A DNA stretch of 11,026 nucleotides from a virus. Taxonomy: Duplodnaviria > Heunggongvirae > Uroviricota > Caudoviricetes. This document shows, one piece after another, positions 4,307 to 11,026 of the stretch (positions are counted from its first letter, which is position 1; every line of letters starts with the position of its first letter). Under the pieces are notes generated by a model, which ran no database searches, was not told where the DNA came from, and saw nothing but the letters and a program-made list of their open reading frames with translations. The position numbers and the translations under genes are program-made. Where the stretch lies: IMG/VR virus record IMGVR_UViG_2690316285_000015; one strand, written 5' to 3'.

Positions 4307-5050
4307 ATGAACAGAAAACAATTCATCCAGTCGCATGGTGCTACTTGTAGTAACTGGACTTGGAGTTGGTCATTTGTGAACCACGACAAGAAAATGGTTA
4401 TCTTTGGTGCATGGGATGTACAAAAAGAGCAAGAAAGATCAGTCATTCTGAGGGAGCGGTGGAAAACCAAAGTTGTGGAGGGAAAGGAAAGAAAAAATCT
4501 TGGATATATTCAAGCTATTGAACACATTCAATTGATAGCTGAAGGTTATGAGCTTTACACGTTTGATATGGAGCAGGGACGAAACGATGAGAATAGAGAT
4601 GTAGCTGTTATCAAACGGTTCACTCCAAAACTTGAAAAACGTTACCTTCGGAAAGAAGGAACAGTTTGGTATGCAGACTTTTTACCTAATCCATTTCCAG
4701 ATGAAATTACCTCACCTGAAAACTACGCTGAGGGTGCAAAAAAGCAAGTTACAGTAAACTCCTACGAGCGTGATCCAAAAGCACGACAGGCTTGTATTGA
4801 CCATCATGGTACTTCCTGCGGGTGTTGTGAGTTTAACTTTGAGAAAGTCTATGGTGAACACGCCAAGGGCTTTATACACGTTCATCATATCAAACCGCTA
4901 CACACAGTAGGCGAGGATTACGAGGTAAATCCAATTACTGATATGGTTCCACTTTGTCCAAACTGTCACGCAATGGTACATCGCGGTAACGAAGTATTAA
5001 GTGTCGAAAGTTTAAAAGCACTGTTGTTTAAAGACAGCAATAAAATTTGA
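4307..5050 (+). CDS. HNH nuclease with McrA-like C-terminal HNH domain and an N-terminal domain of unknown type (possible modification-dependent restriction-like enzyme)
   Basis: C-terminus CGCCEFNFEKVYGEHAKGFIHVHHIKPLHTVGEDYEVNPITDMVPLCPNCHAMVHRG has the C-x2-C ... HH ... N ... C-P-N-C-H arrangement of McrA-type HNH domains; AGAGAGGGA SD-like element just upstream of ATG; ends at TGA. Confidence 0.7.
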   Translation: MNRKQFIQSHGATCSNWTWSWSFVNHDKKMVIFGAWDVQKEQERSVILRERWKTKVVEGKERKNLGYIQAIEHIQLIAEGYELYTFDMEQGRNDENRDVAVIKRFTPKLEKRYLRKEGTVWYADFLPNPFPDEITSPENYAEGAKKQVTVNSYERDPKARQACIDHHGTSCGCCEFNFEKVYGEHAKGFIHVHHIKPLHTVGEDYEVNPITDMVPLCPNCHAMVHRGNEVLSVESLKALLFKDSNKI

Positions 5051-5132: not shown

Positions 5133-5606
5133 ATGAGCATAACAACAATAGCAGCTACATATAAAGATGTGTTAACTATTGCTTTTTCGGCGTTGTCATT
5201 TATTATTGCATGTACTTCCTTATACTTCTCCGGTAGGGCAGCATGGCATGATAGATCAAGGCTAAAAATAACAGCTGACCTCGTCTACGAGTCTTTTGAT
5301 GAGGAACCTTATAAAATCGAGGTGATAGTGATCAATGTTGGTAGGCGTGATGCAGTTTTGGAAGGGATGCTTTGCCATTATGAAAAAGGCATTAGGAGCC
5401 ATTCATCTCCAAAAGAGAGCATTGTTATTAAAGAAAAGCAAAGAAAAAAATTTGAATTGGTAAGCTCAGACTTAGTCACGATAGATAATGAATGTGATAT
5501 TTGTCATTTAGAAGATATAACTATTTTAGATGTGGAGGGGAATGAACATAAAATCCCTAACTCTCACAGACTCATTGCATTACTTAAGCAAGATAAAAAG
5601 ACTTAA
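5133..5606 (+). CDS. Membrane-anchored hypothetical protein (one N-terminal TM helix, about 120-aa soluble domain)
   Basis: Hydrophobic segment LTIAFSALSFIIACTSLYF near the N-terminus; lies 82 bp downstream of the HNH nuclease gene on the same strand. Confidence 0.5.
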   Translation: MSITTIAATYKDVLTIAFSALSFIIACTSLYFSGRAAWHDRSRLKITADLVYESFDEEPYKIEVIVINVGRRDAVLEGMLCHYEKGIRSHSSPKESIVIKEKQRKKFELVSSDLVTIDNECDICHLEDITILDVEGNEHKIPNSHRLIALLKQDKKT

Positions 5607-5686: not shown

Positions 5687-5862
5687 TTTACGAGATGATA
5701 AGAATGGAATTTAACACCTACGATGGTGATATATATTACTTCCTCTATTTATATAGGAGGTACGAAAGGGGGAGTACTTTAATGAAGACCTTATAAATCT
5801 TAATGTTGAGATGTTAGTTATAGCGGTGAGGATACCCCACCGTCTATTGGGAGTTGTGGACT

Positions 5863-6531
5863 CTAATTAGAGAAAACGAATAAGTTATTCATGTCCTTTT
5901 TCAAGGTTGCATGTGCTTCTATTAAACTATCAAATGTATCTACTAATAACTTTCCATAGCTGACATTGTAATGATATCTATCATGAATGTCATTTATATC
6001 AAAACTTATCGCTTCCCTCAATGTTCCTAAAGCAATTTGATTACTGAAGAAATAATTATTGAATATAGCTTCATCTTTTGGCGATACTTTCCAAAAGGTA
6101 AGTGATTGCAATTCGCTTTTTAATGAGGCTAACTTAATGTTTAATAGATCGATAACTTCTCGTTCAGTTTTAACTAAATGTGCGAAATTTTTTGGTTCTA
6201 TATCTGGTTCAGTATTGTTAAGGTTGCATATATTTTCATATGTTTTCAACATCTCCAACGAAAAAAGATCGCAATTAGTCCAGAACTTAGTAACTTGATT
6301 TAAAGCATTTTCCTTTATTTTAGTTTGAAACCAATTTTTAGCGTTCCATGCTGCATATAGGGCTGCTCCAGCCATAATGAGATTGGCAATAGAACTAACC
6401 CAGTCACTAACCGATCCCCACTCGAAACCTTCAGAACCAACAAAGAGTGATTTTATTAGTACTAAAATTACAACAACCAGTAATACTGCTACGGTCGATA
6501 AAAGAACGATATTTAATTTTCTACAATCCAT
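5863..6531 (-). CDS. Membrane protein (222 aa; two N-terminal TM helices and a cytoplasmic C-terminal domain)
   Basis: Hydrophobic segments IVLLSTVAVLLVVVILVLI and VSSIANLIMAGAALYAAW; AGGAA about 11 nt upstream of the minus-strand ATG; stop TAG. Confidence 0.55.
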   Translation of the reverse strand: MDCRKLNIVLLSTVAVLLVVVILVLIKSLFVGSEGFEWGSVSDWVSSIANLIMAGAALYAAWNAKNWFQTKIKENALNQVTKFWTNCDLFSLEMLKTYENICNLNNTEPDIEPKNFAHLVKTEREVIDLLNIKLASLKSELQSLTFWKVSPKDEAIFNNYFFSNQIALGTLREAISFDINDIHDRYHYNVSYGKLLVDTFDSLIEAHATLKKDMNNLFVFSN

Positions 6532-6604
6532 CGAAAGTAGTTCCTGAACGCATTAAAGGGGCAAATACTTTACCATCCGAAACACAATCAAGTACACTAC
6601 CCGT

Positions 6605-6660
6605 TCACGTACTGCTCACATGTTGGGTTTGTTATTTTGTTGGGGTGAGCAGTACGTGTA
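6605..6660. repeat. 15-bp perfect inverted repeat with 26-nt spacer between two minus-strand genes
   Basis: TCACGTACTGCTCAC (6605-6619) and GTGAGCAGTACGTGA (6646-6660); spacer has GTTGGG repeats; begins 4 nt after the stop of the upstream minus-strand gene; no U-tract on either strand. Confidence 0.6.
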
Positions 6661-6663
6661 TCC

Positions 6664-6975
6664 TCAGAAGGGTAGTTCCCCCTGATCACAGAACCAATCA
6701 CCTTCTTCACTGCTTTGATTCATCCGGTACTCAGCAGATAGATATGCTAACCCATCAATAACACTTATTAGTGGTGTTTCACAGGTAAGTACAAAACAAT
6801 CTCTCTCTATAGTACCTAACCAGTATTCCCTGTACTGATTCTGGAAGAATACCCTATCCCCATAATGAAATTCTGTTAGTGCAGATCCCCAATAACACAC
6901 GGTTGCCCAGCGACCGTTATGTGAGAACTTCTGAACCCCTCGCGTAATGGATGGATCATAGCCGTCTTTGCTCAT
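6664..6975 (-). CDS. Hypothetical soluble protein (103 aa)
   Basis: Strong SD: reverse complement of 6976-6995 reads AGAGGAGGGTAACAA immediately before the ATG; ends at TGA; no recognisable domain. Confidence 0.5.
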   Translation of the reverse strand: MSKDGYDPSITRGVQKFSHNGRWATVCYWGSALTEFHYGDRVFFQNQYREYWLGTIERDCFVLTCETPLISVIDGLAYLSAEYRMNQSSEEGDWFCDQGELPF

Positions 6976-7082
6976 TTGTTACCCTCCTCTATGTATTACT
7001 GTATATATGTACAGTATTGCAGTCAGTTTCCCAAAAATCCAGCACCCCTTTGTTTACCACTTTGAATGATTAATTCTATTGT

Positions 7083-7135
7083 AATGATCAATAAAATTGA
7101 TCGATTTAATTGCCAATGTTTTAAAAATGATCAAT
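7083..7135. promoter_or_regulatory. Operator-like repeats AATGATCAAT with three GATC sites, in the divergent intergenic region
   Basis: AATGATCAAT at 7083-7092 and 7126-7135; palindrome GATCAAT-AAA-ATTGATC at 7086-7102; GATC at 7086, 7099 and 7129. Confidence 0.4.
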
Positions 7136-7167
7136 TATCAATAACTTAAAGCGTAACGAGCAAAGTT

Positions 7168-7719
7168 ATGAACATTGATAATTGGGCAATACCGATAACA
7201 AGTTTGGGTGGTCAGTTGCTGGGGGTTGAGTTGGTCAGCCATGTAGAACGCGAGGGAATCAGGCAGATCGGCCTATGGGAAGAAGAAGTACTTCATGGGC
7301 AACTAATGCTTATTGAAAGCAAGGCGGCATGGTTCAGGGATAACGGTTTGTATTGTGTGATTACTACTGGCCGTGGTGAACCATACGAGTACTTACCATT
7401 CCTTCGGCAGATGACAAGGGATATGAAAGTACATAACCAGCAGTGGCTTGATGATCTCGGTGTACATGGTGGTTCTGCTATTCCTCTGGTTACAGGTGAT
7501 TTCGAGGTTGCCCGATTAAATAGAAGGTACACAGAAGAGAACATTGACCGTCTGATCTTTCCAGTACTCATAAAAAGCATTCGCCAGTACTGCGAGAAGG
7601 TGATCGTACCCGTCAGAGATAAAACGTATTACCCAATTCTCAGAGAGGCCGGTGTATGGGCGGTACAGGGAGAGTTCAGGCCAATGCGTTTTGAGCAATG
7701 TGAAAAATTAATAGGATAA
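7168..7719 (+). CDS. Degenerate EAL-like domain protein (YdiV/RflP-like; catalytic motifs not conserved)
   Basis: AIPITSLGGQLLGVELVSHV parallels the start of EAL domains (QPIV...G.EAL.R) with ELV in place of EAL; WLDDLGVHGGSA parallels the DDFGTG(Y)S motif in degenerate form; C-terminal AVQGEF parallels the (V/L)QG(Y/F) motif. At 183 aa it is shorter than catalytic EAL domains. Confidence 0.55.
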   Translation: MNIDNWAIPITSLGGQLLGVELVSHVEREGIRQIGLWEEEVLHGQLMLIESKAAWFRDNGLYCVITTGRGEPYEYLPFLRQMTRDMKVHNQQWLDDLGVHGGSAIPLVTGDFEVARLNRRYTEENIDRLIFPVLIKSIRQYCEKVIVPVRDKTYYPILREAGVWAVQGEFRPMRFEQCEKLIG

Positions 7720-8469: not shown

Positions 8470-8910
8470 ATGAAAATTACAGTCGATAATATCTCTGAAA
8501 TGTTTGCAGGAACTAAAGAACTACTAATCGGTGGCTTAATAACAGGTATCGTCGGAGTACTTATTTTAACTCGTGTTAGTGGTTATGAATACGTTAAAGT
8601 ACCTTTAATGTTAGTAATGATATTCTTACTAACTGTAGTTCCTGGTTTTATTGCTATGCTTTTTTCACCACTAACGAAAGTATTTGCAAAGATATTTGAT
8701 ATTAAAAGCAGTAATATACTTTGCCGCATTTTCTCATTTCTATATTTCATCTTGTATATGGCTATTACTTTCTTGGTGACTAATTTTATATTCACTACCG
8801 CAATGTCATTACACGGCGGGGATGGTGGGTTGAGAGCATGTTTTGCAATTGGCTGTTTTGTCGTTGCAGTTGAGCAGACAAGAAAATTCTATAGTTTGCT
8901 TATCAAGTAA
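8470..8910 (+). CDS. Integral membrane protein (146 aa, about 4 TM helices)
   Basis: Four hydrophobic segments (e.g. LLIGGLITGIVGVLILTRV, LMLVMIFLLTVVPGFIAMLF, IFSFLYFILYMAITFLVTNFIF, LRACFAIGCFVVAV); AAGGAA upstream. Confidence 0.55.
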   Translation: MKITVDNISEMFAGTKELLIGGLITGIVGVLILTRVSGYEYVKVPLMLVMIFLLTVVPGFIAMLFSPLTKVFAKIFDIKSSNILCRIFSFLYFILYMAITFLVTNFIFTTAMSLHGGDGGLRACFAIGCFVVAVEQTRKFYSLLIK

Positions 8911-8932
8911 AGGGCAAGTACTAAAGAAATGT

Positions 8933-8967
8933 GTATTTGATGAAGGGTAAGTACTTTCATCAAATAC
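8933..8967 (+). terminator. 12-bp stem hairpin 22 nt after the membrane protein gene stop (possible terminator or processing site; no U-tract)
   Basis: GTATTTGATGAA (8933-8944) / TTCATCAAATAC (8956-8967) with 11-nt loop GGGTAAGTACT that contains AGTACT and GGTAAGTAC. Confidence 0.3.
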
Positions 8968-9249
8968 GCAACAAATTACAAGGTGAGCATTTCATCACAA
9001 TTGTTTTAATTAACGATATTTTAAATTATTTTACGTAATTGAAACAAAATCAGCCATATCGCTTGTTAATTGGTATTGAGACTTTGTAGGTGTTATCATG
9101 CAATTAAATCATTTGCATTGGTATCTCTTATGGAAAAATTGATATTGCTATTATTATTACCTTTAACAACAAGTGCAGCTATTCCAGACTTTAAATGCTG
9201 GGATATTCATAACGATTCATTTAGTACTGACATGAGTTTCTACGTTACA

Positions 9250-9475
9250 AGATATCTCGAACCGTAATTATATCCATCATCAAATGCTTCATTGGTTATT
9301 ACCAGTTCCCTGTAAAATTTCTNNNNNNNNNNNNNNNNNNNAGATATCTCGGTAAAATGCCGCCGCCTTATGGTGCATTTCATTATGAAACAGCACCTGA
9401 TGAGAAATTTTACAGGGAACTGGTAATAACCAATGAAGCATTTGATGATGGATATAATTACGGTTCGAGATATCT
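9250..9475. repeat. 73-bp perfect inverted repeat flanking an assembly gap
   Basis: Left arm 9250-9322 is the exact reverse complement of right arm 9403-9475; between them lie the N run and 61 bp of unique sequence (9342-9402). The palindromic octamer AGATATCT occurs at 9250, 9342 and 9468. Confidence 0.7.
9323..9341. other. Assembly gap (19 N)
   Basis: Run of n characters; true length and content unknown. Confidence 0.95.
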
Positions 9476-9669
9476 AAACAAAGAAGGAACTTTGTACGAT
9501 GATATTAAATGTAAGCGGCTTTGATACTCATGATTCATTGTATATAGCTTACAAAGTATATTAACCATTGCATTCAATGGGTCCCTCCATACTGGCGGTA
9601 CTATCGAGGGTTTTCGGCAGCGGGTTTAATCAATTGTGTGTGAACAAAATGATCATACCCGCACCGCAT

Positions 9670-10998
<1,329 letters not shown>

Positions 10999-11026
10999 AG
11001 TGGTCAACAAAAACTGGCCACCGAGT

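Follow-up and report, generated by a model that had tools for sequence, protein, structure and literature searches.

A putative SOS-responsive accessory module with a conserved hairpin and an exchangeable membrane-protein slot in a decayed prophage remnant

IMG/VR virus record IMGVR_UViG_2690316285_000015 is an 11,026-nucleotide (nt) stretch of Caudoviricetes DNA, here called the window, whose minus strand carries a gene for a 103-amino-acid (aa) soluble protein, a hairpin, and a gene for a 222-aa membrane protein. The 103-aa gene is predicted to be controlled by LexA, the hairpin is one member of a co-varying family, and the 222-aa gene lies in a slot that other phages fill with other membrane proteins. 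The best description is that the stretch is an SOS-responsive accessory module, from an uncharacterised temperate phage whose head module is of the lambda type and whose integrase is a serine integrase, and that it survives between IS2 and IS911, as a remnant, in a genome of the Shigella sonnei type. Taken whole, with the mechanism proposed below, this description is held at about even confidence. Two of the components are uncharacterised protein families and the third is a new structured element. Comparisons draw on 80 related loci collected from genomes, viral contigs and metagenomes (named L001, L003 and so on).

The LexA box and the 103-aa protein

The components of the unit, in the order in which the minus strand is read, are as follows.

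6998..7026, minus strand: putative promoter of the 103-aa gene as read from the sequence, with -35 CTGACT (7026-7021), a 17-nt spacer and -10 TACAGT (7003-6998)
6997..7016, no strand assigned: LexA (SOS) box, TACTGTACATATATACAGTA in the minus-strand reading, which agrees with the palindromic E. coli consensus TACTGTATATATATACAGTA at 19/20 positions
6664..6975, minus strand: 103-aa soluble protein, ATG start, GGAGG 8 nt upstream
6606..6658, minus strand: hairpin with a perfect 14-bp stem (6645-6658 pairs with 6606-6619) and a 25-nt loop, CCCAACAAAATAACAAACCCAACAT on the minus strand
6567..6598, minus strand: module of putative promoter function, AGTGTAC (6598-6592), 16 nt, then TGGTAAAGT (6575-6567)
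5863..6531, minus strand: 222-aa membrane protein, with a first transmembrane (TM) segment at about residues 7-29, the conserved FEWGSVSDW...MAGAALYAAWNAK as the second, and a variable four-helix-bundle domain

The LexA box lies about 40 nt upstream of the 103-aa start and is the sole CTGT-N8-ACAG sequence in the window. A CTG-N10-CAG box is found in 71 of the 73 loci in which the N-terminus of the gene is intact, and in 69 of these 71 it is placed 34-45 nt upstream of the ATG. The boxes comprise 37 distinct sequences that agree with the consensus at 13-19 of 20 positions, all but one (36/37) at 15 or more. The two loci that lack a box are L023 and L027, the latter having an insertion sequence (IS) transposase gene between the small terminase gene terS and the 103-aa gene. 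In the window the box covers the spacer and -10 element of the putative promoter, so that, as in the LexA regulon, a 20-bp box of the form TACTG-N10-CAGTA overlaps or adjoins a promoter; a simple promoter scan did not call this promoter. Control of the 103-aa gene by LexA, and hence a gene switched by damage, is a well-supported prediction. The first-pass annotation of the window had described the two genes and the intervening stem-loop as a unit, a description that holds in part, but it overlooked the box at 6997-7016; the regulatory signal of the unit would be this upstream box and not the hairpin.

A distant homologue of the 103-aa protein also lies within a LexA-boxed operon, adjoining a DinI-like gene, in phage Cartapus (NC_070909, P2/186-like; L081).

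31754-33240 of Cartapus: perfect LexA box, followed by gp44, DinI-like gp45, gp46 and gp47

The homologue is gp46, which matches the core of the 103-aa protein with 39% identity over 71 residues (pairwise E = 7e-12).

The open reading frame (ORF) of the 103-aa protein (6664-6975, minus strand) and its strong ribosome-binding site, GGAGG 8 nt 5′ of the ATG, are as first annotated. The AlphaFold2 (AF2) model features five beta strands, a helix at residues 72-91, and a low-confidence acidic tail ending WFCDQGELPF-COOH, for which the predicted local distance difference test (pLDDT) score is about 61. In an alignment of the close family, W94, F95, Q98, L101, P102 and F103 are invariant; the tail includes D97 and E100, and none of the last 14 residues is basic. 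A profile search of 1.8 billion representatives returned only 37 proteins, mostly of about 100 aa with some shorter fragments and one 966-aa outlier, and Q-x-E-L-P-F-COOH, in the wider form [D/x]-Q-x-E-L-P-F, ends nearly all full-length remote homologues even at low identity. The protein matches phrog_2100 (function unknown) at 4.8e-9, has no match in Pfam, NCBIfam or PADLOC, and no relative in the PDB by sequence. As modelled, the 103-aa family is an orphan fold.

The tail resembles two kinds of peptide that dock on the replisome. The beta clamp is bound by hexapeptides of the pattern Q-x-x-L-x-[LF] or QL[SD]LF, set in disordered and mostly terminal segments, examples being QLSLPL of Hda and QLVLGL of Pol IV. 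Residues 98-103 of the 103-aa protein, QGELPF, fit the pattern Q-x-x-L-x-[LF] in a disordered terminal segment, and like such docking peptides the tail is disordered and acidic, with Q-x-x-L-P-F at the very C-terminus (compare QLSLPL of Hda). The C-terminal tip of SSB (the protein that binds single-stranded DNA), DDDIPF, is the hexapeptide of an interaction hub (PMC5872125). The 103-aa tail has the same [I/L]-P-F-COOH ending, in the form E-L-P-F-COOH, but does not have the DDD triad of the reference D-D-D-[I/L]-P-F-COOH. A docking function for the tail may be suggested by these likenesses. A literature search on SSB-tail mimics, 8xMP membrane proteins, the SOS operon of phage 186 and AGTACT enrichment gave nothing usable beyond the definition of the SSB tip.

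A bolder reading would make the 103-aa family a new class of SOS-induced phage proteins, in which the invariant Q-x-E-L-P-F-COOH engages a hub of the host replisome as a decoy or an adaptor, the hub being the beta clamp or else those pockets of repair and restart proteins that bind the SSB tip, and in which the hairpin is a new class of structured RNA whose C/A-rich loop is read by a partner. This reading is rather unlikely. If it were true, temperate phages would gain a damage-triggered handle on host replication and repair.

Alternatively, the 103-aa protein could be a LexA-controlled antirepressor that inactivates the prophage repressor upon DNA damage and so leads to induction, in the style of Tum of phage 186. 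The Gifsy phages reportedly provide another precedent in GfoA and GfhA. Such a role would suit a small prophage protein under a strong LexA box, it has its precedent in 186, and the window shows no CI-like repressor that has a cleavage domain. However, comparison of the family profile with Tum, an antirepressor with a DinI-like C-terminal half, gave a probability of 0.1% in hhalign, and the Cartapus homologue sits beside a DinI/Tum-like gene and not in its place. Furthermore, the family occurs in two unrelated backbones, one with a lambda-type head and serine integrase and the other P2-like. What it conserves best is a terminal peptide of the docking type that does not vary between divergent phages, whereas an antirepressor would usually be expected to track its own repressor. 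An antirepressor is therefore judged unlikely, and a LexA-controlled protein with a docking tail is retained as the preferred reading.

The hairpin downstream of the 103-aa gene

The hairpin begins 5 nt past the stop codon of the 103-aa gene and has a 14-bp stem and a 25-nt loop, in place of the 4 nt, 15-bp repeat and 26-nt spacer reported earlier. The description of the spacer as G-rich holds for the plus strand, where it is G/T-rich, but on the gene strand the loop is C/A-rich and has no G. Within the loop is the family motif AACAAACC-N-ACCCA. The 161-nt region between the two genes folds better than each of 200 shuffled versions (200/200; z = -3.5). Rho-independent terminators have a GC-rich stem, a loop of 3-8 nt and a 3′ U-tract; here the stem is present, the loop is 25 nt long, and the sequence that follows is AACGGGTAG. 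The absence of a U-tract had been noted in the first-pass annotation and is borne out, and a terminator scan was empty on both strands.

Hairpins of this kind recur among the related loci, where 29 distinct copies with 18 distinct stems were found, one or two per phage. In about 16 distinct loci the hairpin starts 0-10 nt past the stop of the 103-aa gene; in other loci it follows a different same-strand gene or sits up to 4 kb downstream. The stems are 9-23 bp long and unrelated in sequence, the inner 9 nt of distinct arms being 39% identical on average, and each arm pairs with its own partner at 95% as against 44% for cross-pairing between copies. The loops are 19-34 nt long and consist of 46% A, 40% C and 2% G.

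An alignment of whole hairpins by MAFFT set the stems out of register, and pairs were instead counted in a spliced alignment of 21 distinct copies, made of the inner 9 nt of each arm and a 12-nt loop core. In this alignment 94.2% of cells are paired, compared with 50.6% when arms are shuffled across sequences, and none of 500 shuffles reached as high a value; the percentage itself is biased upward because the arms were picked by complementarity, so that the cross-sequence shuffle is the meaningful control. All 9 pairs have changed on both sides, the covariation score is 1.08 against 0.23 in shuffles, and shifting the partner by 1-3 columns lowers pairing to 31-46%. A scan blind to the loop motif, for perfect stems of at least 9 bp enclosing a loop of at least 80% A+C, yielded 38 hairpins from loci totalling 1.18 Mb and none once the sequence was shuffled. 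Use of the exact 14-mer loop motif as a finder in viral contigs was abandoned: its matches were mostly due to chance, with a hairpin at 5 of 120. Rfam 15 gives no gathering-level match in the window, and only chance-level ones in 5700-7250 (E >= 0.6). The hairpin is thus well supported as a real, structured and co-varying element outside Rfam.

The composition of the stems is asymmetric, as C favors the 5′ arm and C-G pairs are about 10 times commoner than G-C pairs. Mismatches are evenly divided, 11 G.T versus 11 A.C, and because these numbers are equal the acting strand of the structure is not settled by them.

One locus departs from the pattern. At 4481-4512 of L065 the loop is wholly lost and a perfect 32-bp palindrome is left (TTCACGCTACACCTAC/GTAGGTGTAGCGTGAA), while the promoter-like module and a full-length 222-aa homologue are retained.

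The promoter-like module, its cargo and the linkage of the two genes

Downstream of the hairpin, 15 loci have the module AGTRTAC-N16-TGGTAAAGT, in which the first element is AGT(G/A/T)TAC and the 16-nt spacing is invariant. In the window the module's minus-strand reading features an extended -10 (TGnTAAAGT), placed 35 nt upstream of the 222-aa start, and its plus-strand reading gives TTACCA-N17-TACACT (in general form TTACCA-N17-TA(C/T)ACT), directed into the hairpin. The distance from module to ATG is 29-38 nt ahead of two unrelated classes of cargo gene. The first class, which includes the 222-aa protein, has members of about 210-260 aa in which the N-terminal TM hairpin (FEWGSVSDW...MAGAALYAAWNAK) is conserved and the helical domain at the C-terminus diverges strongly. 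The second class belongs to Pfam PF24838, the octameric membrane protein family 8xMP (E 4e-21 to 1e-27), and is found at the following places.

L044, 10429-11181: 8xMP (PF24838) cargo
L060, 8084-8836: 8xMP cargo
L062, 12557-13315: 8xMP cargo
L056, 10351-11040: 8xMP cargo
L113, 11518-12216: 8xMP cargo

TGGTAAAGT occurs only where a same-strand cargo gene follows, and elsewhere AGTRTAC remains without it. In L113 the hairpin and module stand beside a divergent HNH gene, with no 103-aa gene nearby, and are followed by a class-1 gene and a class-2 gene in tandem. Readings of TGGTAAAGT by eye as a sigma-54 or sigma-28 element were discarded, as the second element that they need is not conserved in other loci. 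The 222-aa gene is well supported as cargo in a swappable slot, and it appears to have a promoter of its own.

The plus-strand reading of the module leads to a serious rival account of the hairpin, which would then be the 5′ structure of a transcript from the opposite strand, with its promoter TTACCA-N17-TACACT at about 6569-6597 (plus strand) and its start at about 6604-6606. In the window such an RNA would be cis-antisense to the 3′ end of the SOS gene, as in symE/symR and tisB/istR, and elsewhere it would form the 5′ untranslated region (UTR) of the next gene. On the opposite strand, 28 of 29 flank types have a -10-like hexamer (A2, T6, at least 4/6) at 3-12 nt from the base of the hairpin, compared with 35% expected, and 13 of 29 have a match of at least 5/6, compared with 11% expected; however, the flank types are not independent and such hexamers are common in AT-rich spacers. 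In L053/L007 the whole unit is inverted and points into a class-1 TM gene 40 nt away, and in L113 it points into the HNH gene. Mismatches of the C.A type in the stem would be G.U pairs on the opposite strand, although the G.T mismatches equal them in number. The loss of TGGTAAAGT where no same-strand cargo follows fits a sense promoter better, and the terminator scan finds no terminator downstream on the plus strand. The opposite-strand account is possible, if on the unlikely side, and the sense reading, in which the hairpin closes the SOS unit, is preferred.

It could also be that the hairpin works at the level of DNA, as a cruciform or single-strand structure marking a cassette junction or a recombination site for cargo exchange. 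The cargo beside the hairpin is highly variable, the wobble pairs have no strand preference, and the unit is found inverted (L053/L007) and in a different neighborhood (L113), with one or two copies per phage. Nevertheless, the hairpin has no consistent link to a recombinase or nuclease, its stems differ between phages and so cannot serve as the sequence that a protein recognizes, and positional conservation by common descent explains the orientation data equally well. This is a very improbable account.

The ORF of the 222-aa protein (5863-6531, minus strand) is likewise as first annotated, and the claim of two TM segments agrees with the AF2 model (pLDDT 82), which shows two N-terminal hydrophobic helices: one at residues 3-29 and the hydrophobic start of a long helix at 38-105, which is followed by a helical bundle. 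By the positive-inside rule this bundle should be cytoplasmic. The N-terminal module is common to divergent cargo proteins. The 222-aa protein has no match in Pfam, NCBIfam or PADLOC, and the earlier statement that neither it nor the 103-aa protein has a recognized motif stands, in that these three databases assign a family to neither.

A hidden Markov model (HMM) of the class-1 N-terminus finds the gene in 32 of 81 loci, always on the same strand as the 103-aa gene and downstream of it. At least 5 kb of downstream sequence is available for 53 loci, and in these a class-1 gene is adjacent (less than 200 nt away) in 9 and within 5 kb in 25. It is absent altogether from the large L011-type cluster of near-identical phages. 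In E. coli AREA_C483 (L001) the two genes are 5.4 kb apart, and between them lie an HNH gene, one further ORF and a copy of IS3 with a group II intron inside it. Two or three tandem class-1 paralogues with different C-terminal domains occur in L003 (608-2442 nt past the 103-aa gene), L054, L078 and L051, which suggests duplication and diversification. Because they are adjacent in only 9 of 53 informative loci, the two genes are frequent neighbors rather than an obligate pair or operon. As a separate observation on L001, the interrupted IS3 copy (10541-14021) stands between the 103-aa gene and the remainder of the accessory region.

The first-pass annotation had instead likened the two genes to a toxin-like or abortive-infection operon coupled by an attenuator. 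A single toxin/antitoxin-like or abortive-infection pair, with its coupling set by the structured RNA between the genes, has in its favor the common strand, the constant order in which the two-TM gene is never upstream or opposite, and the 9 loci with adjacent genes. Also, the unrelated, P2-like Cartapus again has a 103-aa-family gene with a gene for an N-terminal-TM protein behind it, and phage 186 has the order tum, terminator, membrane Orf97. This proposal is not supported by the comparison of loci, where adjacency is limited to 9 of 53, the TM gene is missing from the L011-type cluster, and the genes are far apart in AREA_C483. The cargo has a promoter-like module ahead of it and is exchanged for 8xMP in the same slot, the signal of the unit would be the upstream LexA box, and the hairpin and module exist without the 103-aa gene in L113. 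Neither protein matches a defense or toxin family in PADLOC, Pfam or NCBIfam, nothing points to toxicity, and no alternative pairing of the attenuator type or leader peptide is seen. Such a pair is thus regarded as quite improbable, and separate genes, one under LexA and one as cargo, remain the preferred reading.

The 222-aa protein could be an exclusion or defense factor, as is suggested by its conserved anchor and hypervariable domain, by duplication in tandem, and by its replacement with members of another membrane family.

In the mechanism proposed here, LexA would repress the 103-aa gene in the lysogen and DNA damage would de-repress it. The disordered acidic tail, Q-x-E-L-P-F-COOH, is predicted to dock on a host replication or repair hub, either the beta-clamp cleft or the SSB-tip-binding pockets, and docking would redirect or block host DNA metabolism during induction. 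The hairpin would mark the end of the SOS unit, as a non-canonical partial terminator or an RNA-end structure that insulates the next gene. The 222-aa protein would be a moron, expressed by the prophage from a separate promoter; most likely it would be a superinfection-exclusion or defense factor anchored in the membrane, with its variable helical domain under diversifying pressure and with Orf97 of coliphage 186 as the parallel.

Several points weigh against this account, in which induction, binding, termination and exclusion are all predictions. The hairpin is not a canonical terminator, because of its 25-nt loop and the missing U-tract, and a model in which it ends the SOS unit leaves the conservation of the loop unexplained. 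The even split of non-Watson-Crick pairs between the strands and the enrichment of -10-like hexamers on the opposite strand by the hairpin base do not favor the sense reading, and the latter fits the opposite-strand one. The likeness of the tail to clamp-binding motifs and to the SSB tip lies in a short pattern; position 2 of the tail hexapeptide is G and not a hydrophobic residue, and the acidic triad of SSB is only partly there. The cargo promoter has no recognizable -35 and was not called by the consensus scan. Finally, the 103-aa family has no similarity to Tum, and the 222-aa protein no sequence similarity to Orf97 or Cartapus gp47.

If the account holds, the 103-aa gene would be a new, widely conserved member of the small set of LexA-controlled prophage functions, and its family would offer a case of short-motif mimicry of replisome hubs that is directly testable with a peptide. 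The hairpin adds a structured element with unusually clean covariation outside Rfam. Together with the promoter-like module it forms a conserved "socket" at which prophages exchange membrane proteins, and which may serve as a useful hunting ground for exclusion and defense genes. In Shigella sonnei, a decayed prophage remnant would by implication still add a gene to the SOS regulon.

Phage background and comparison with known systems

The window runs from an IS2 end (1-44) to an IS911 end (10993-11026). Outside the unit described above, it contains the following recognizable genes.

208-1038: serine recombinase, C-terminal part, N-terminus gone
4307-5050, plus strand: HNH nuclease, 247 aa
10269-10814: Nu1-like small terminase (TerS)
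From 10729: lambda-type large terminase, start only, cut by IS911

The window is a decayed prophage remnant, as the serine recombinase has no N-terminus, the large terminase is cut off, and IS ends flank both sides. It is the remnant of a real temperate phage, because related contigs of 31-36 kb have phage head and packaging genes (terS, terL, a gpW-like connector, a portal and a protease/major-head fusion). Among cultured phages there are no DNA-level matches to a 1.5-kb region of the window and no matches to TerS. The 1.5-kb region is matched in 1 of 5,426 E. coli genomes; AREA_C483, whose island adjoins yeaG, is the sole E. coli genome with a related island. The 222-aa product has a match of 100% identity in a partial protein from Shigella sonnei.

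Several other genes of the window are shared with its relatives. On the minus strand at 9670-10290, directly beside terS, a protein of about 190-206 aa is encoded opposite to it and is kept in all relatives examined (L011 6787-7347; L046 7657-8217); it has the C-terminal cysteine motifs CDCxxxxxCxC and no family match. At 5133-5606 (plus strand) a 157-aa protein with an N-terminal TM segment is kept near the cargo region in distant relatives (L005 10626-11084), with which it shares the motif VGRRDAVLEG, again with no family match. The HNH protein at 4307-5050 resembles type IV methyl-directed restriction enzymes (PADLOC mREase_IV, 4.7e-7), and the L113 homologue (9833-10558) is the immediate neighbor of the hairpin and promoter module and diverges in orientation from the cargo genes. 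The gene at 7168-7719 (plus strand), divergent from the SOS gene, encodes a 183-aa protein that looks like a shortened, degenerate EAL domain, with scores far below cut-offs both for the 220-aa L046 homologue (PF00563, 3e-5) and for the 183-aa protein itself (NF008617, 2.7e-5). Between the 183-aa and 103-aa genes, 7075-7135 holds three GATC sites in palindromes of the TGATCA/ATTGATCAAT type, compared with 0.6 expected, and this region could be a Dam-sensitive operator. A run of 19 N is found at 9323-9341, inside the non-coding stretch 8910-9670.

The palindrome AGTACT is also strongly over-represented, occurring 33 times in the 11 kb compared with 3.7 expected (z = 15, about 9-fold), while AGTAC and GTACT occur 59 times each compared with about 11-12 expected. 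All related prophage loci (L010, L011, L027, L062 and others) have the same density of about 10-12 per kb, on both strands, in coding and non-coding sequence, and with no strong frame preference. The flanking host DNA has only 0-3 per kb, so that the density shows where the prophage begins and ends. AGTACT could be a binding, modification or packaging signal.

Some SOS-induced genes are controlled by cis-antisense RNAs, namely symE by symR, tisB by istR-1 and dinQ by agrB. The present locus is similar in that a LexA-boxed gene has near it a possible antisense promoter, which would be constitutive, and in that the putative antisense RNA would contain a stable hairpin. It differs in that the overlap would be at the 3′ end and not in the 5′ UTR, and in that the protein is neither a small hydrophobic peptide nor SymE-like (it has no Pfam match). 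Phage morons are cassettes of promoter, gene and terminator expressed from the prophage. The 222-aa gene is like a moron in its promoter-like element and its variable slot, filled by 8xMP in sister phages, but the 5′ boundary of the slot is here a conserved hairpin and promoter module common to different cargo genes. To our knowledge, a slot boundary made of a hairpin and a promoter is not a described feature of morons.

Cartapus resembles the window in that gp46 lies behind a perfect CTGT-N8-ACAG box and is followed by gp47, a 203-aa protein with an N-terminal TM segment. However, gp46 lacks the ELPF terminus and ends in ...DANYSLFD, there is no hairpin with a CA loop, and gp47 has no detectable similarity to the 222-aa family. 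TATAAT is present in the 48-nt gap ahead of gp47. A by-eye impression that gp44 is related to the N-terminus of Tum was dropped when a pairwise comparison showed no similarity.

The closest known analogue, by architecture only, is the SOS operon of coliphage 186. Its annotation (NC_001317) lists the promoter p95 with a LexA site, the antirepressor gene tum, the "partial" terminator t95a, orf97 and the terminator t95b, and records that expression of orf97 from a plasmid blocks 186 infection. Orf97 is a protein of about 240 aa with two N-terminal hydrophobic segments as judged by eye; comparison of the 222-aa protein with it by BLASTP gave E = 22, and only the architecture of two N-terminal hydrophobic helices and a soluble domain is common to both. 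Both phages have a promoter (here a putative one) with a LexA site, a small soluble protein, a hairpin (which in 186 lets part of transcription pass) and a membrane protein with two hydrophobic helices, and in both the module lies in an accessory region far from the immunity region. The t95a element of 186 has a U-run and is a canonical intrinsic terminator; the hairpin here, though stable, has a conserved 25-nt loop, no U-tract and no terminator call. Also, the membrane gene here is exchangeable and has its own conserved promoter-like module. Because the architecture is that of 186, while the proteins are non-homologous and the intergenic element is different, the unit is classed as a prophage SOS operon with membrane cargo, of a new variant.

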